In this document: positions 3,032 to 47,620 of the stretch, piece by piece
Position numbering within the stretch: position 1 is the stretch's first letter
Layout of the letters: each line of letters opens with the position of its first letter
NCBI GenBank assembly: GCA_021803945.1
Contig: JAJZKW010000005.1
Coordinates: 7,716-55,335 of the forward strand
Direction: 5' to 3'
Origin: Candidatus Micrarchaeota archaeon
GTDB taxonomy: Archaea > Micrarchaeota > Micrarchaeia > Micrarchaeales > CABMGC01
Length of the DNA: 47,620 bases
The notes under the pieces: model-generated
Database searches by the model: none
The model's input: the letters and a program-made list of their open reading frames with translations, nothing else
Told to the model about the DNA's origin: nothing
Program-made: the position numbers and the translations under genes

Positions 3032-3487
3032 TTGGCCATACCAATACTACCAGAGCTAGCGGCAATAGCAATTGCATACGTAACGCTTACAATCGTAGTG
3101 CAGAGGAAACTGATAAACTACAAGAGGATAAAGGAGATAAAGAAGGAGATGGACTCTAAGATGAAGGAGCTGAAGCAGATGGGCGCAACCGCAACAAAGG
3201 AGATGACGGACGCCAAGCAGAAGGAGATAATGCTGCTCACATCAGAGAGCATGAAGCACCAGATCAAGGGAATGATTATAATACTTCCAATATCAATACT
3301 TCTATATTACGTCGCGCTTCCGGCACTGTTCCCTTCACAGGCCACAGTCATCGTCCTTTCATACACGCTGCCGTACAGGACGTTCTTCATAATTGTGGCG
3401 TTCGTCCTGGGATTGATATCGACGATGCTGCTCTCGCTGTACGAAAGGGCAGTGGCGAAGAGGCAGCAGCCGGTTACCGCTCAATGA
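3032..3487 (+). CDS. DUF106 / EMC3-TMCO1 (Oxa1 superfamily) membrane protein
   Basis: TM helix, coiled coil, then TM helices; conserved position between adk and L34e; TTG start. Confidence 0.8.
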   Translation: MAIPILPELAAIAIAYVTLTIVVQRKLINYKRIKEIKKEMDSKMKELKQMGATATKEMTDAKQKEIMLLTSESMKHQIKGMIIILPISILLYYVALPALFPSQATVIVLSYTLPYRTFFIIVAFVLGLISTMLLSLYERAVAKRQQPVTAQ

Positions 3488-3500
3488 AAAAGGTGTTTTT

Positions 3501-3821
3501 TTGCCAAAACCAATGCACAGATCGAGAAGCTTCAGGAGGCTTGACAGAGTCACTCCGAAGAACAGGCACGTCATCCACTACAAGAGGAAGTCCCCGTCAA
3601 TGCCGCACTGCGCAATCTGCAGGAAGGAGCTCAATGGGATATCCCTAAAGCCGAGAGGAAAGAGCGCAGCGACCAATTCCAGGAAGTTCGGCGGCGTGCT
3701 CTGCGCGTCATGCACCTCCAAGGTGATAAAGCTGGCGAGCAGGATAGAGCAGGGAGAGATGAAGCTAAATGACATCAGCATAGTAGACAGAGCGTTTGTA
3801 CTCCAGATGATATCGCACTGA
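3501..3821 (+). CDS. rpl34e: 50S ribosomal protein L34e
   Basis: MPKPMHRSRS, CxxC...GGVLCxxC zinc motif. Confidence 0.93.
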   Translation: MPKPMHRSRSFRRLDRVTPKNRHVIHYKRKSPSMPHCAICRKELNGISLKPRGKSAATNSRKFGGVLCASCTSKVIKLASRIEQGEMKLNDISIVDRAFVLQMISH

Positions 3822-3842
3822 AGGCATAGCAGATGCATCCCC

Positions 3843-4406
3843 ATGGAAGCAATAATAATATCCGGGAAGCCGGCGGCCGGCAAGACCACAGTAGCCAGGA
3901 TCATCGCCGGACGGCTGCACATAAAAGCCATAGGCGGGGGAGACATACTAAAAGAGATGGCCATCGAGAGAGGGTATAATGCGCACGGCGACGAGTGGTG
4001 GGACTCGAAAGAGGGCATAGAGTTCCTGATGGAGAGGAAGAAGAACCCGGATTTTGACAACGAAGCTGACAAGAAGCTTATAAAAAAGATAGACGAAGGC
4101 GACATAGTCGTCACAAGCTACACTGCCGCATGGATATCCAAGAAGGGCTTCAAGGTCTGGCTCGACGGAACAGAGAAGACAAGGGCGGAGAGGATGGTAA
4201 AGAGAGACAATACGGAAATGTCGGAGAGCATGAAGGTGGTAAAGATAAGGGACATAGAGAACTTCAACGTCTACAAGAAGATATACAACATAGACTTCGG
4301 CAAGGACAAGACACCCTTCGACCTCATAATAGACACCAACTCAAAGCGCCCGGAAGAGGTAGCGGAGATTATATTAAATGAATATAAGAAAAGGAATAAT
4401 AGATGA
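3843..4406 (+). CDS. cmk: cytidylate kinase
   Basis: ISGKPAAGKTT P-loop, FDLIIDT; conserved position between L34e and L14e. Confidence 0.88.
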   Translation: MEAIIISGKPAAGKTTVARIIAGRLHIKAIGGGDILKEMAIERGYNAHGDEWWDSKEGIEFLMERKKNPDFDNEADKKLIKKIDEGDIVVTSYTAAWISKKGFKVWLDGTEKTRAERMVKRDNTEMSESMKVVKIRDIENFNVYKKIYNIDFGKDKTPFDLIIDTNSKRPEEVAEIILNEYKKRNNR

Positions 4407-4663: not shown

Positions 4664-5980
4664 ATGAAATTCAGGCTCACTCCAAAGATAAAGGACATAA
4701 TCGCAAGGGACAGGAAAGTGATAATGACGACAACGCGCGGCGAGGTCCCTTTCGTTGCGTCACACGGCAGGGGGGATTTCGTATATGATGTGTCAGGGAA
4801 CAGGTTCATAGACTTCTCCTCATTCATAAGCGTATACAATTTCGGGGTTAATGGCACAAAGGAGGCTGCTGCTGCCATAAGCAGCCAGGCTGCCAAACTG
4901 ATGCATCCTGCGTTCACCGACTATTATGCCGAGCAGCCTGTAGCCTTCGCCGAAAACCTGCTCACGATGTTCCCCAAGGGATTTGGAAAAGTCTTCTTCT
5001 CAAATTCAGGCACCGAAGCCAACGAAGCGGCAATAAAATATTCAAAGCTGTTTACCAAGAGGCAGTATACGATAGCCTTCTATAACTCATTCCACGGAAG
5101 GACAATAGGATCTCTCTCCCTCACGTCTTCGAAGATCGCGCAGAGGGAAAGGTTCGGTCCGTTCAACTCCGTCGTACATGCTCCGTACGCATACTGCTAT
5201 AGATGCCCGCTCGGCAAGGAGTATCCTTCATGCGGCATAGCATGCGCGGATTACCTGAAGAAATACCCGTTGGCCAAGGAGGTCTCCCCGAAAGAGGTTT
5301 CCGCAATATTCATCGAGCCCGTCCAGGGGGAGGGTGGGTATGTAGTTCCCCCAAGAGAGTTCGTCAAGGAGGTCAGGAAGATAGCCACTGACAACGGGAT
5401 GCTGCTTGTCTCCGACGAGGTGCAGGCAGGGTACATGCGTGCAGGGAAGTTCCTTGCTATGGACAATTTCGGAGTAGAGGCCGACATCTATACGCTTGCA
5501 AAGGCAGCAGGCGGAGGCCTGCCCATAGGAATCACCGTGGCAAGGAATTCGCTTGGCAACGTTCCTGAAGGCGCGCACTCAAATACGTTCGGAGGGAACC
5601 TCGTGTCAGTCGCAGCAGCCGACACCACGCTCAGGTACATAAAGAAGAACATGCGTTCGCTAGAGGCGCAGATAAAGGAGAAGAACAGGATAATCATGGA
5701 CAGGCTCAACAGGATGAAGGACGAATACGAGATAGTGGGAGACGTCAGGGGCCTAGGGCTTATGATAGGCGTGGAGTTTGTCAAGGACAAGAAATCCAAG
5801 GCACCTGCGGTCAAGGAAAGGGATGCGGTGGTGCTGGAGTCATTCAACAACGGCTTGCTCATGCTGCCATGCGGTGAATCAGTGATAAGGATAATACCTC
5901 CGATAACGATATCAAGGAGCAGCCTCGAAGAGGGGCTCGACATACTCGAGGCAGCGATCAGGAAGTCCTGCGGGAAATGA
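4664..5980 (+). CDS. class III PLP-dependent aminotransferase (acetylornithine/4-aminobutyrate type)
   Basis: NSGTEANEAA, FHGRT, EPVQGEGG, DEVQAG, LAKAAGGG (PLP lysine), HSNTFGGN. Confidence 0.92.
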   Translation: MKFRLTPKIKDIIARDRKVIMTTTRGEVPFVASHGRGDFVYDVSGNRFIDFSSFISVYNFGVNGTKEAAAAISSQAAKLMHPAFTDYYAEQPVAFAENLLTMFPKGFGKVFFSNSGTEANEAAIKYSKLFTKRQYTIAFYNSFHGRTIGSLSLTSSKIAQRERFGPFNSVVHAPYAYCYRCPLGKEYPSCGIACADYLKKYPLAKEVSPKEVSAIFIEPVQGEGGYVVPPREFVKEVRKIATDNGMLLVSDEVQAGYMRAGKFLAMDNFGVEADIYTLAKAAGGGLPIGITVARNSLGNVPEGAHSNTFGGNLVSVAAADTTLRYIKKNMRSLEAQIKEKNRIIMDRLNRMKDEYEIVGDVRGLGLMIGVEFVKDKKSKAPAVKERDAVVLESFNNGLLMLPCGESVIRIIPPITISRSSLEEGLDILEAAIRKSCGK

Positions 5981-6058
5981 TGGATCAGCGCGTAACGCTG
6001 CGCGCTGCAGCTCAACGCGTTACATACATCATATAAGGAAAAGGAAATAAGGTTCAGG

Positions 6059-9690
<3,632 letters not shown>

Positions 9691-43587: not shown

Positions 43588-44430
43588 ATGAACATAACAA
43601 GGAGAAGCATAGCGATTTTGTTCCTGCTGGGTTTTGTGCTGCCGTTGGCGTATGCGCAGTGGAATACGGGAAGCGGCTACGGAGGCTATTCAACGTCAAA
43701 CACAAGCAGCGCGTCAACGTCATACAATACGTCAAGCACATCTACGGCATCTAGCAATACCTCTTCTTCATCTACAGTATCCGCTGTTCCAGTCGCGACA
43801 TTCCAGGCCATATCAGAGAACAACATCATAGTTAACGCCATTGCAGGAGGATCGGTGAGCCTTCCAGGAATAACGGAGGTAATAGCGCCAGGCACATATG
43901 CGCTTATAGGGAACAAGACAGTAGGGTCGTACAACTTCTCCCTCATACTGTTCAGCACCAAGAACGTGCCGTCCCCAAGCAGCAACGGAACCCTGACTCC
44001 ATCAGGCGCATTCGCATATGCAATAAACGGGCAGATAACGACCGCAATCACAATGGTCAATTCAACGGGCTCGCCCAAGCCTGTGACCACCTTCGTTGCA
44101 GGCAGCCCAAGCACATCGACCACATGGACCTTCCTCGGCGGAACATTCAACGGAACTTCATATACAGGAGGGAAATACGCCTTCGCAGATACATGGAAAC
44201 AGGTCAATTCCACCACGATGGTGAATACGCAGTTCATAAAGCCGGTCATGTGGGTATTCGAGGCAGTAAAGGCCCCCGCCCCTGCAACTACGCAGCCAGC
44301 CACTTCAAAGACCCCGGCGCCTTCCACAAGCGCTCCGTCCAGCCCAGGCACGAGCCCGCTCGTCTATGTTGTAGTAGCAGTAGTGGTAATAGCCGTAATC
44401 GCATACCTATACACAAGGAGCAAGAAGTAG
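43588..44430 (+). CDS. Ser/Thr-rich secreted surface protein with C-terminal TM anchor
   Basis: Signal peptide, S/T linker, globular domain, P/T linker, TM helix plus RSKK. Confidence 0.78.
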   Translation: MNITRRSIAILFLLGFVLPLAYAQWNTGSGYGGYSTSNTSSASTSYNTSSTSTASSNTSSSSTVSAVPVATFQAISENNIIVNAIAGGSVSLPGITEVIAPGTYALIGNKTVGSYNFSLILFSTKNVPSPSSNGTLTPSGAFAYAINGQITTAITMVNSTGSPKPVTTFVAGSPSTSTTWTFLGGTFNGTSYTGGKYAFADTWKQVNSTTMVNTQFIKPVMWVFEAVKAPAPATTQPATSKTPAPSTSAPSSPGTSPLVYVVVAVVVIAVIAYLYTRSKK

Positions 44431-44671
44431 TCCAGCATGGTTTGCAGATTGACAGAGACCTGAATGCATCCCTGAACATACTGAAGCTTGGGATTGAAAA
44501 ATTCCGACTACCCCTGGACAAGGGGAAAGTTGAAGCCTCTGGAGACAGTGTAAGACCTTCGCACATGAAGGCAGTTGCCGATGAATCAGGAACTATACGT
44601 GGGGCATCCAAATGAACAATGCGGATAATATCCACTGGAAGCCCACGATTTCAATCATGTGAGGATGTCAC
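44430..44671 (+). mobile_element. tnpB: IS200/IS605-family remnant: tnpB 3' fragment, omegaRNA region and right end
   Basis: Encodes GLQIDRDLNASLNILKLG (TnpB C-terminal RuvC-III motif) and ends GAAGCCCACGATTTCAATCATGTGAGGATGTCAC (subterminal hairpin plus TCAC). Confidence 0.85.
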
Positions 44672-45243: not shown

Positions 45244-46152
45244 CTATCCAAGCATGGAGATGCCCTGCTCAAGTCCTATCTTCGCCTTGAATCCGAGCAT
45301 CCTCCTGGCCTTGCTGGTATCCGCAAGGGTGGCCATCACATAGTTCTTCACAGGCATCTTGATGTATGTGGGCTTTATCCTCTTGCCAAGCTTCCTGTTG
45401 AGCGTCTCGACCATCTGGTTTATCGTATAGCTCTTGCCGTAGCCCACGTTGAAGACCTCGAATCCCCTTACCTTCGATGCTCTTACCAATGCATCCACCA
45501 CGTCATAGACGTGCACGAAGTCCCTCTTCTGCGTCCCATCCCCGTATATGACCGGGCTCTTGCCCTTCTTCATGAGCCACATGAATTGCGAGACAAGGTT
45601 TGCATATCCCTTCTTTGCCTCCTCGTGCGGCCCGTAGACCGAGAAGAATCTCATGGCGGCTATGTCGCATCCCTCCATCTTGTTGTAGAGCTCTGAGGCC
45701 CTCTCCGCGAATATCCTGCCCTCGGTGTAGTAATCCGTTATCCTGTAATCCGCATCCTCCCTGTGCGGAGGCTTCACTCCGTTGTATATGGAAGACGTCG
45801 ATGCGAAGACCATCGGTATGCCGGCTCCCTTGACGTATTCCAGTATCCTCACCATGCTGTTGGTCACCTCTCCGAGCAGCTTCGGGTTCTCCCTGTACAT
45901 GGGCGAGGCGGAGTACATGCCAAGGTGGTAGACGATGTCAGCATCGAACCGCATCCTTGCAAGCTCCCCGGAGTCCGCATTCCTGAACACCACGTTCCCT
46001 GACTTCATCGCTTCGGCAAGGTTGCCCTTAGACCCAGTAAACAGGTTGTCCACAACGCATACCTCGTTCTCCCTGCAGAGCCTCTCCACAAGGTTGCTGC
46101 CTATGAAGCCCGCTCCGCCCGTCACTATTATCTTCTTGTTCTTAATCTCCAT
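45244..46152 (-). CDS. NAD-dependent epimerase/dehydratase
   Basis: TGGAGFIG, ASTSSIY, RFFSVYGP, GDGTQKRDFVHV; catalytic motif reads YTEGR (YxxxR). Confidence 0.9.
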   Translation of the reverse strand: MEIKNKKIIVTGGAGFIGSNLVERLCRENEVCVVDNLFTGSKGNLAEAMKSGNVVFRNADSGELARMRFDADIVYHLGMYSASPMYRENPKLLGEVTNSMVRILEYVKGAGIPMVFASTSSIYNGVKPPHREDADYRITDYYTEGRIFAERASELYNKMEGCDIAAMRFFSVYGPHEEAKKGYANLVSQFMWLMKKGKSPVIYGDGTQKRDFVHVYDVVDALVRASKVRGFEVFNVGYGKSYTINQMVETLNRKLGKRIKPTYIKMPVKNYVMATLADTSKARRMLGFKAKIGLEQGISMLG

Positions 46153-46399
46153 AAATCCACGCCTATCGTGCTAGTCCTTCAATTATATCCTTAAGCGCGC
46201 ATTTATTTATATGCGCTCAAACTGCGCCTTTACACTGATAGTCCAGTATGGGCTGAAGATAAGTCCCGAGTTGATTTCCCCCGAGCTAAAAATCTGTTTT
46301 TATATGCTAAGCATCTTCGACGGAAAGGCTTTAAGACAACCAACAATATATAAGGTTTGATACAGTATATGAATAGGTTATATCTCGAAACCGGTCTTT

Positions 46400-46582
46400 A
46401 TGGACGAAAAAGAAAAGTTTTTAAAGATATATTCGAACATACCTATGAATCTACGAGATGACATAGTGGCTGTCATCGATGGCAAACCAGTCACTTGGAA
46501 TGTGGCTTTCGTAGAAATTTCAAATAACAGTGAAATTGGCACAAAGATTTTGAATAAGCTTTTAGAAATGGAGATAATATGA
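46400..46582 (+). CDS. small hypothetical protein 1 of a three-gene module
   Basis: 60 aa, ATGA overlap with the next gene, AT-rich. Confidence 0.75.
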   Translation: MDEKEKFLKIYSNIPMNLRDDIVAVIDGKPVTWNVAFVEISNNSEIGTKILNKLLEMEII

Positions 46583-46785
46583 TATCAGAGGATGTAAAGG
46601 AACTTGTAATTGCAAAGCTATCGGTGATGCCATCTGATAGAAAACTTGCAGTCGGCGCTTTCGGCGAGTTTACGAAAGAACAACTAATAAAGCATGTTGA
46701 AGATGATGACGATGTGGGCAGAAAGATCGCGGAAATTGAAATATCCTTTTTGAAAGCAGTAGCCCAAGGTAAGGTGTATGGTTAA
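46579..46785 (+). CDS. small hypothetical protein 2 of a three-gene module (paralog of protein 1)
   Basis: 68 aa; T-x7-[IV]-x6-G-x-K-I pattern shared with protein 1; 8-nt overlap with the next gene. Confidence 0.75.
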   Translation: MISEDVKELVIAKLSVMPSDRKLAVGAFGEFTKEQLIKHVEDDDDVGRKIAEIEISFLKAVAQGKVYG

Positions 46786-47092
46786 AGGATACCTAATTAC
46801 CCTTCCCGACCACGATATAGTTACCCATTATTTATCTACTTATGCTAAACAGACTTTCAGCGTTGCCGAGGAGCATGATTTCAGAATAATACCGCTCGAA
46901 AATATGAAAGCTAACAGTAACGACTTCAGAAGTTACGTTACAAACAATAAAGTTGACTTTGTTGTATTCAATGGCCATGGAAATGGTACATCAGTAACTG
47001 GCCAATTAGATAAGCCGATAATAACAGCGGGAATAAACCACGAACTATTAACAATGCGAGTCGGAAATCTCATGCAGTCTACCGATTGGTAG
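46778..47092 (+). pseudogene. caspase-like (clan CD, CHAT/C25-like) protease, apparently truncated before the catalytic Cys
   Basis: DFVVFNGHG catalytic-His strand; the ORF contains no Cys and ends about 35 aa later. Confidence 0.6.
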
Positions 47093-47159
47093 TTTACTGG
47101 GTTCAAAGTCTATCTTGCGCGTTTCTCATTAGCGCAGCGAAATAGGTCCCACTGGTCTA

Positions 47160-47620
47160 TCAGGCAGCGATGCCCGCATAGTCCACAAGCGCCCGCAGTA
47201 CTCCTCCGACAATGGGTATGCTCTTAGAAAGCTCCCTTATCGTGTTTATGTCCCCTATGTCCGCTCCCTTCAGCAGCGCAGCCAATGGCGGGTAGAGCAG
47301 TATGTAGACCATGGCCACCGATGCCAGGAGCACTGCGCCGCTCAGGAAGGGGTATAGCAGCAATGCAACGGCAGACACTATGGCGTTTGCGAGTATTAGC
47401 CTGGCAAACTTGTTCAGCCTCAGCCTTACGTCAAACATCTTCGAGAGCTCCCTTATGAATACCAGGTCGCCTATGACCGGGCTCAGTATGAATGCTATCA
47501 TCACGTACGCGTTTCCTCCGAAGTATGGCACAAGCGCAAGGAAGAGCGCAAGCACCACCAGGTTTATGGCGATATTGTACTTGAAGACCGTCCTGACCCT
47601 GTTCGCGCTTATCAGTATCG
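47160..47620 (-). CDS. oligosaccharide flippase (Wzx/MOP family), C-terminal part, runs off the window
   Basis: Frame is open to the window edge; multiple TM helices, LVPYFG motif, D(I)xxI...IP(I)VG C-terminus; near sugar epimerases. Confidence 0.68.
   Translation of the reverse strand, partial: ILISANRVRTVFKYNIAINLVVLALFLALVPYFGGNAYVMIAFILSPVIGDLVFIRELSKMFDVRLRLNKFARLILANAIVSAVALLLYPFLSGAVLLASVAMVYILLYPPLAALLKGADIGDINTIRELSKSIPIVGGVLRALVDYAGIAA

Follow-up and report, generated by a model that had tools for sequence, protein, structure and literature searches.

A recurrent three-gene cassette of two mini-proteins and a clan CD-like cysteine protease, truncated in a Micrarchaeota genome

Introduction

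In bacterial gasdermin operons, an adjacent gene for a caspase-like protease is coupled to the gene of its presumed target in a setting of cell death and defense. In the type III-E 'Craspase', the TPR-CHAT protease cleaves Csx30 (PMC9729208; PMC11106740). Tripartite type II toxin–antitoxin (TA) loci such as omega-epsilon-zeta, paaR-paaA-parE, pasABC and spoIISABC place two small genes ahead of a larger effector gene in one operon, and their single toxin is attended either by an antitoxin together with a regulator or by a pair of antitoxins, according to the section on such loci in PMC4803016. Here, we analyze a locus of three open reading frames (ORFs) in a stretch of 47,620 nucleotides (nt) from a Candidatus Micrarchaeota archaeon (assembly GCA_021803945.1, contig JAJZKW010000005.1, positions 7,716 to 55,335 of the forward strand), which as a whole is referred to below as the window. 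ORF1 and ORF2 encode mini-proteins of 60 and 68 amino acids (aa), and ORF3 encodes the N-terminal part of a cysteine protease. An earlier note, made from the window sequence alone, had proposed the trio as a candidate defense or cell-death module; we report here that it is a damaged copy of a cassette that recurs in ultra-small archaea and bacteria, and we weigh what this cassette may do.

Results

A fixed three-gene cassette

In the phylum of the window, a profile of the protease family found members in 25 of 301 sampled genomes, representing 20 of 129 genera, and all 26 loci besides the window's own carry ORF1, ORF2 and the protease gene in the same order and on the same strand. Strong matches to the ORF2 profile (E <= 2.5e-21) occur in exactly these 25 genomes and always adjoin the protease gene; in addition, the profile finds one degraded fragment (G195:C13). 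Within the window's own genus, the cassette is present in 2 of 10 sampled genomes, G000 included. A wider scan with one genome per species returned 130 relatives, of which the best 80 loci were kept. They derive from many Patescibacteria lineages, Omnitrophota, a Latescibacter and a Vicinamibacteria metagenome-assembled genome and, among archaea, from Woese-, Pace-, Nano-, Iain- and Nanohalarchaeota and Altiarchaeales. The order ORF1–ORF2–protease is found in 77 of these 80 loci, the misses being two cuts at contig ends and one locus (L096) that has a 5'-truncated protease gene without the small genes. The statement in the earlier note that such trios recur as hypothetical proteins in genomes of the candidate phyla radiation (CPR) and DPANN thus proved correct at 77 of 80 wider loci and 26 of 26 loci of the phylum. 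In a sample of a CPR phylum, the protease occurs in 11 of 401 genomes, the seed genome included, and all eight genomes with an intact protease gene have ORF2 and ORF1 directly upstream of it. Because all three genes are conserved in more than 100 other loci, the trio lies far beyond chance ORFs.

The cassette is a self-contained unit in which small genes lie upstream of, and are coupled to, a larger gene. The overlap between ORF1 and ORF2 is exactly 4 nt at 32 of 77 loci; at 75 of 77, the two genes either overlap or lie no more than 15 nt apart. No fourth gene is conserved with them, the next neighbor cluster being present in 5 of 100 loci. The three genes appear to travel together and to co-diverge: the pairwise-distance matrices of the three families correlate with r 0.61–0.71 (Mantel p 0.001, 91 loci). 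A full-text literature search did not turn up any account of the cassette.

The third gene belongs to a clan CD-like cysteine protease family

With ORF3 as query, 264 matches at E <= 1e-3 were obtained among 1.84 billion representative proteins, and a profile search of a 5.8-billion-protein collection gave 565 protease homologues at E <= 1e-5, all of them unnamed or 'hypothetical', with CPR bacteria as the named sources. ORF3 homologues are mostly 200–219 aa long, and their residues 1–95 align with residues 1–95 of ORF3. A His, the Gly next to it and a Cys about 34 residues further on are invariant in 96 of 96 full-length members, the corresponding motifs being a hydrophobic strand followed by NGHG and then a hydrophobic strand followed by [SA]-C-x-S. 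We propose that the protease is catalytic because His and Cys are invariant in all 96 members. ORF3 of the window keeps FVVFNGHGN and the family invariants P10, N65, G66, H67, G68 and G75 and contains no Cys, so that the His motif is kept and the dyad is lost.

One of the 96 members (P0018) matches the Pfam family Peptidase_C25 (PF01364) above threshold (E 7.2e-7, 29.2 bits, cut-off 23); its residues 45–215 align to profile positions 215–374 of 374, and the full 374-position catalytic domain is not matched by this protein of only 215 aa. Three further members give weak, colinear Peptidase_C25 matches (E 0.016–0.066), and the other 92, like ORF3 of the window, give none. For CHAT (PF12770), a single member of the 96 reaches E 0.061, or 13.2 bits vs a cut-off of 24, which falls below the profile threshold; for Peptidase_C14 (caspases and metacaspases), there is no match up to E 0.1 among the 96 members. 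Profile and single-sequence searches of PDB sequences with the protease found no gingipain. When folds were compared, with predicted models on both sides, the ESM Atlas model of P0018 (pTM 0.92) aligned to a Gingipain R/Peptidase_C25 cluster with TM 0.80 over 203 residues and to four CHAT clusters with TM 0.71–0.72 over 179–186 residues. Some of the Atlas neighbor clusters of P0018 are labeled mostly Uroviricota.

The earlier note had assigned the third gene to clan CD, and the His and Cys invariant in 96 of 96 members, the Peptidase_C25 match and the gingipain and CHAT structural neighbors uphold this. Its label of a caspase-like protease holds for the fold class of clan CD, but not at the level of families, where the closest relatives are gingipain (C25) and CHAT and not caspases proper, C14 giving no match. 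On the strength of the predicted fold, we would file the protease family as a new minimal branch of clan CD that is nearest to C25 and CHAT and a member of neither Pfam family. The note had also named beforehand what would speak against it, namely homologues without a conserved downstream Cys or a caspase fold, or three genes that are not linked elsewhere; the homologues have the Cys and a predicted fold of this class, and the genes are linked.

Gingipain-type clan CD enzymes cut after Arg or Lys. In the cassette family, a near-invariant Asp lies about 40 residues past the Cys, and from this residue and what is known of gingipain structures we would guess that the cassette protease, too, cleaves after Arg or Lys. 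Longer or fused forms were found for neither ORF3 nor ORF2, in itself weak evidence. Clan CD also holds transamidase-like enzymes, which raises the question of whether the large protein is hydrolytic at all or instead a transpeptidase, a ligase or a scaffold without catalytic function. With the His and Cys invariant throughout the 96 members and no conserved C-terminal Gly-Gly or sorting signal in the mini-protein alignments, such an activity strikes us as extremely improbable.

The two mini-proteins

In the ORF1 family (93 sequences), F7 and W33 are invariant and Y11, P15, R19, P30, E39, I50 and L54 are conserved in at least 90%; the window's ORF1 is 73% identical to its orthologue at L007, the locus with the closest intact relative, from a genome of the same family. 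In the ORF2 family (95 sequences), G26 and G47 are invariant. The earlier note had seen a motif with identical spacing in both mini-proteins, and T32-x7-[IV]40-x6-G47-x-K49-I50 indeed occupies the same positions in the two window proteins; only the Pro differs (P15 vs P18). The note had also called the two proteins paralogous. Profile–profile alignment of the families (hhalign) recovers the register of the shared motif (E 0.0044 and 0.0035), but at a probability of just 8–9%, which makes paralogy suggestive at best.

An AlphaFold2 model of ORF2 made from the family alignment (pLDDT 94.3) has, in order, a helix at residues 4–15, strands at 22–24 and 30–32, and helices at 33–41 and 45–62. It finds no match among the BFVD viral models (best E 0.33), and a search of the Atlas returned only unnamed clusters, below 0.9. 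Two candidate relationships found no confirmation. An OmpR-type winged helix for ORF2, weakly indicated by Trans_reg_C in 4 of 27 members (best E 0.0035) and by PDB matches at E 0.13–0.58, was not borne out by fold searches. A likeness of ORF1 to aIF2-beta, at E 0.014 with a 25-sequence profile, was gone with 93 sequences and is treated as chance. The median pI is 6.1 for ORF1, 5.4 for ORF2 and 8.7 for the protease; neutral-to-acidic mini-proteins together with a basic protease would weakly favor protein–protein partners over DNA binders.

Marginal matches to the ORF2 profile (E 5.5e-4 and 9.5e-4; positions 13–58) were also seen at G022:C11:64152-64286 and G252:C22:19145-19282. Both sit inside open frames of ~1170 aa in genomes of the same order as the window and could be chance matches or an ORF2-like domain in a large protein.

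The window copy is truncated, and decay is asymmetric between the genes

ORF3 is 58% identical to the L007 protease over residues 1–95, and its homology to intact relatives ends at 47062 (tblastn), just before the Cys strand. The stop codon (47090–47092) lies 67 nt from the flippase stop at 47160. As the earlier note had recognized, the window copy lacks the catalytic Cys half, aligning only to residues 1–95 of homologues of ~215 aa. No relic of the C-terminal half was found downstream of 47062 or elsewhere in the assembly, and no second copy in the same genome. Contigs from public runs of other studies, namely X5 (47019–47108 and 47079–47319) and X6/X7 (46911–47139), are identical to the window across the junction; because they bridge it identically, the junction is not an assembly artifact and the allele is present in more than one sample. 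Both small ORFs of the window retain the family invariants, with one exception among the near-invariant residues, R13 of ORF2, which a K replaces here and in a few further members. Against L007, the numbers of nonsynonymous substitutions per site (dN) are 0.18, 0.20 and 0.32, and because synonymous sites are saturated in this comparison, decay after the truncation cannot be judged from dN/dS. What remains in the window is a dead remnant of an element acquired horizontally, inserted beside cell-surface glycosylation genes.

Seven loci combine a damaged protease gene with two intact small genes. In the window the damage is a 3' deletion, in G195 the gene is split, L079 and L131 have one in-frame stop each, G314 has an in-frame stop, G536 retains positions 2–121 only and G594 is spread over two frames. 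The opposite state, an intact protease gene without the small genes, was found at 0 of 107 loci (25 + 75 + 7). By our own arithmetic, which spreads first hits according to gene length, with ~0.61 of them on the protease, the chance that all seven of seven damages hit the protease is ~0.03, or 0.05 without G594. This asymmetry would be expected if an unrestrained protease is harmful; it would also fit if the small proteins are useful alone. The G594 locus is ambiguous: its read-through match (G594:C16:17299-17939, L143) contains five in-frame TGA codons, which reflects either advanced decay or a genetic code in which TGA stands for an amino acid.

The same pattern bears on a model whereby the small proteins are natural substrates of the protease, in the way that Craspase acts on Csx30 or an ImmA-type protease on a repressor, and a signal-induced cut switches on a downstream response through the fragments or through loss of a heterodimer. 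Mere substrates predict intact proteases next to broken small genes, the combination seen at none of the 107 loci, and the cassette offers no sensor domain, no conserved downstream effector or target gene and no detected DNA-binding fold. On the other hand, the three genes strictly co-occur and co-diverge, each small protein has a near-invariant basic residue (R19 in ORF1, R/K13 in ORF2), an archaeal virus carries a two-gene form made of an ORF2-like mini-protein and a protease, and caspase-like proteases paired with a small dedicated substrate occur in defense (PMC9729208; PMC11106740). On balance, we regard the substrate model as rather unlikely.

Mobility and neighboring genes

In the window and at seven of the eight relatives' loci examined, the cassette has a lower GC content than the DNA flanking it. 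In a tree of 98 rows, the archaeal/bacterial label needs 2 changes, compared with a mean of 31 in shuffles; family codes within the window's phylum are scattered over this tree, and the clade with the window's closest relatives (nine archaeal rows, SH-aLRT 97) is nested in an otherwise bacterial group. In a genome of the window's genus (locus L038, G290:C17), positions 5353–7431 hold a tRNA-Asn, a tyrosine integrase, ORF1, ORF2 and the protease gene in that order, and at L005 an integrase-like ORF lies directly upstream of the cassette. The cassette is an autonomous, horizontally moving and patchily distributed unit, foreign in composition, whose ultra-small hosts are DPANN-type archaea and, among bacteria, CPR/Patescibacteria, Omnitrophota and some further groups. 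Beyond the L038 cassette are a HerA/AAA_10-like ATPase and many unknown small ORFs, and this stretch is probably an integrated element, although no att repeat was found within 7.5 kb. Downstream of it, at 498–2390, lie three copies of a direct repeat of 117–205 nt with 72–77% identity.

These properties also speak to an ordinary role in ultra-small symbionts, in which the mini-proteins would be adaptor or activator subunits that activate or target a regulatory protease without any conflict function. A stoichiometric complex of this kind is suggested by the translational coupling and fixed order, and the well-conserved small proteins, the many loci among housekeeping genes and the mostly separate placement of archaeal and bacterial versions on the tree would all be in keeping with it. 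Yet the cassette occurs in just 25 of 301 and 11 of 401 genomes and is in a minority even in the window's genus (2 of 10); its composition is foreign to the flanks, pseudogenization is frequent (8 damaged copies among ~115 loci), and in the same-genus genome it is linked to an integrase and a tRNA. An accessory element fits better than a core function because the cassette is patchy, foreign in composition, often damaged and integrase/tRNA-linked, and we consider the adaptor model unlikely.

The phage records contain one match to the protease among 50,697, at 26% identity. This Caudoviricetes record (BK063666.1, L140; host given as Methanofastidiosa) holds a distant two-gene variant at 3100–4043, in which a 66-aa ORF whose residues 31–61 match the ORF2 profile overlaps by 4 nt with a 248-aa protease homologue. 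The 248-aa protein keeps the GHG...SC motifs and ends in a hydrophobic tail that resembles a membrane anchor. It might be asked whether the cassette is cargo of viruses or mobile elements of CPR and DPANN that serves the element itself, in maturation, counter-defense or host takeover. The two-gene version in BK063666.1, the mostly Uroviricota Atlas neighbor clusters and the integrase directly beside the trio at L038 and L005 would agree with such a role; that only this one of 50,697 phage records matches, at 26% identity, that no relative was found in IMG/VR or in plasmids, that an integrase is adjacent at just 2 of 26 phylum loci and that most loci lie between chromosomal housekeeping genes make it very unlikely in our view.

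Within 3 kb of the cassette, 8–10 of 19 loci of the phylum have TA, restriction, CRISPR, retroelement or transposase genes, the families being AbiEii, DarT/Macro, PIN, HNH plus C5-methylase/Vsr, CARF/Cas6, RVT and DDE; CARF and Cas6 are found at one locus (L048) only, and no partner recurs. Among the 142 nearest-neighbor ORFs of the 80 wider loci, 12 carry conflict families (HicB, type ISP, Schlafen-type, Pol-beta NTase, Fic twice, AEP-TOTE, NYN, DpnI and PIN), where in both surveys the classes were assigned by the analyst without a control set. No gasdermin family is listed in the Pfam scans of 125 and 142 neighboring ORFs, and the partner genes of Craspase and gasdermin systems (gRAMP/Cas7-11, Csx30, gasdermin) did not appear as recurring neighbors of the cassette.

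The locus in the window

The three ORFs lie head to tail, with overlaps of 4 nt between ORF1 and ORF2 and of 8 nt between ORF2 and ORF3 (Table 1). In 300-nt windows, GC is 0.34–0.40 over 46200–47099 and 0.45–0.57 in the flanks, and the trio has a GC of 0.38 vs 0.50 in the rest of the window. The upstream neighbor is a gene for an NAD-dependent epimerase/dehydratase on the opposite strand, and downstream lies a membrane-protein gene of which the contig end leaves only the 3' part. The 152-aa fragment encoded by the latter has no Pfam match of its own; it shares 40% identity with the C-terminal end of a 515-aa ORF from a same-genus genome, which matches Polysacc_synt (Wzx-type flippase) with E 1.8e-19. 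A glycosylation-gene context is reasonable because an epimerase and homology to a Wzx-type flippase are found at the flanks. Coordinates, GC and flank homology agree in this with the earlier note, which had described an AT-rich, overlapping trio inserted between glycosylation genes.

Table 1 Features of the cassette and its flanks in the window
Feature	Position	Strand	Remarks
ORF1, 60-aa mini-protein (family A10)	46400..46582	+	First gene of the trio
ORF2, 68-aa mini-protein (family A9)	46579..46785	+	Second gene, directly before the protease gene
ORF3, 104 aa	46778..47092	+	Third gene, truncated protease
Homologous part of ORF3: N-terminal 95 residues of a ~215-aa C25/CHAT-like cysteine protease, including NGHG	46778..47062	+	
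Deletion scar: nine unrelated codons and a stop, replacing the Cys strand and C-terminal half	47063..47092	+	
Low-GC island holding the cassette	46200..47100	no strand	GC scan
TATA-box-like A/T element aacaATATATAAgg, ~47 nt upstream of ORF1	46346..46353	+	Read from the sequence
Epimerase gene, upstream flank	45244-46152	-	Pfam Epimerase, E 8.9e-40
Flippase gene fragment, 152 aa, downstream flank	47160-47618	-	Homology to same-genus 515-aa ORF

The host genome comprises 902 kb in 26 contigs and is 94% complete, and the genes beside the cassettes of relatives are archaeal (eIF-6, PcrB, tRNA-intron endonuclease, A-type ATP synthase). Judged by its sequence, the A/T element upstream of ORF1 is a possible archaeal promoter; a sigma-70 promoter scan of the window locus gave no score above shuffles, and a search for RNA evidence found none. 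Neither a tRNA nor an Rfam family was found near the cassette. A 13-nt inverted pair (46235–46247 and 47151–47163, 12 of 13 complementary) has its arms almost exactly at the edges of the low-GC island, the right one overlapping the flippase stop codon. We considered it as a terminal repeat and set this aside, as we estimate that ~0.35 such pairs are expected by chance and the pair may mean nothing. A comparison with empty sites in the genus matched only the epimerase gene (66–76% nucleotide identity); because the flippase is not beside the epimerase in these relatives, the borders of the insertion could not be set.

Two further ORFs lie upstream of the epimerase gene. At 44433–44612 (+), a 60-aa piece without a Pfam match translates to ...IDRDLNASLNILKLG..., which we take to be like the C-terminal motif of TnpB/OrfB of IS200/IS605 elements, and it may be a transposon remnant. 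At 43588–44430 (+), a very Ser/Thr-rich protein of 280 aa without a Pfam family starts with a hydrophobic stretch and ends in a hydrophobic anchor; it is probably a surface protein that carries glycans, in keeping with its sugar-nucleotide and flippase neighbors.

Discussion

Altogether, our tentative reading of the cassette, drawn from its sequences and plausible without reaching even odds, is that of a tripartite module akin to TA and abortive-infection systems in which the small proteins would restrain the protease. Intact copies are arranged as one operon, of fixed order and tight translational coupling, for proteins of ~62 aa and ~72 aa and a cytoplasmic cysteine protease of ~215 aa. In this model, the protease, basic and with a predicted caspase/gingipain fold and a His-Gly...Cys dyad, would act as the effector that does harm. 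The mini-proteins, both mildly acidic and possibly descended from an old duplication, would be made in a fixed ratio with it and hold it inactive, either constitutively or until a trigger arrives, so that loss of the mini-proteins while the protease is intact would be selected against. In the window genome, a deletion took away the protease gene from the Cys strand onward, leaving a dead effector and two small genes as apparently intact leftovers. We infer that the small proteins bind the protease and that the protease, once triggered, is toxic through a cellular target.

A bolder version, which we hold to be doubtful, is that the cassettes form a cross-domain family of autonomous cell-suicide or addiction modules specific to ultra-small episymbionts (CPR, DPANN and Omnitrophota), in which a gingipain/CHAT-like protease toxin is checked by two paralogous proteins of ~65 aa with a fold that has no counterpart in the PDB.

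Several observations weigh against a restrained protease toxin. Neither mini-protein matches a Pfam, NCBIfam, PHROG or PADLOC family, and no DNA-binding or antitoxin family, whether of the ribbon-helix-helix (RHH), helix-turn-helix (HTH) or another type, was recognized in them. Among solved structures, nothing convincingly resembles the ORF2 model (Foldseek best E 0.46; VIA-align best Z 4.5, with 0 of 48,161 chains at Z >= 5). At the 13 loci inspected, no operator-like palindrome was seen upstream of ORF1. With a mean column identity of 35–37%, the mini-proteins are well conserved for antitoxins. The asymmetry of decay rests on seven events and fits small proteins that are useful on their own as well. 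PADLOC-DB v2 gave no meaningful match for the three window proteins or for 26 full-length cassette proteins from several phyla, and no relative of the cassette was found in plasmids or in IMG/VR. Transfer between the domains is rare, with 2 label changes on the 98-row tree. Finally, apart from the conflict families, the neighbors are mostly housekeeping or unknown genes, and a conflict-gene neighborhood surveyed without a control set is suggestive only and does not establish enrichment in defense islands.

The cassette stands unnamed in hundreds of genomes of CPR and DPANN organisms, most of whose genes have no known function. Should it prove to be an addiction or defense module based on a protease, it would add a new effector class to TA biology and, to the caspase/gingipain clan, a minimal member of ~215 aa that brings its own protein regulators, whose fold is of an unknown kind. 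If the bolder version is true, the cassette would be the first tripartite TA or abortive-infection system with a protease toxin and represent a new minimal clan CD family. Such a protease could serve as a compact, controllable enzyme, and the cassette would open a way into the conflict systems of organisms that so far do not grow in culture by themselves.

Small autonomous operons of the conflict type with a caspase-like protease at their center are a known kind of system. New here are this branch of proteases, both families of mini-proteins, an ORF2 fold that is apparently without a match, and the range across CPR and DPANN. With gingipains (family C25, PF01364, clan CD), the cassette protease would share the caspase/hemoglobinase-type fold as modeled, and also the placement of the His in an H-G after a hydrophobic strand and of the Cys after the next strand, with a spacing of 34 residues; in gingipains this spacing is 33. 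Unlike them, it has ~215 aa and no further domains, occurs in CPR and DPANN rather than Bacteroidota, and always has two mini-protein genes in front. Gasdermin operons differ in that the partners in the cassette are soluble proteins of 60–75 aa and no gasdermin is listed among the neighbors. CHAT proteases (PF12770), such as TPR-CHAT of type III-E Craspase, are structural neighbors of the predicted P0018 model, whereas sequence similarity to them is marginal, TPR, STAND, TIR or CRISPR partners do not recur at the cassette and a sensor domain is absent. Craspase resembles the cassette in joining a caspase-like protease with a small dedicated protein (PMC9729208; PMC11106740). From tripartite TA loci, the cassette differs in its effector, a cysteine protease unlike any toxin in the section of PMC4803016 on such loci, and in that no RHH, HTH or other antitoxin family was found in it. 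What it has in common with them is the layout of two small genes and a larger effector gene, autonomy, a patchy distribution with horizontal movement, and an effector that decays while the small genes persist.

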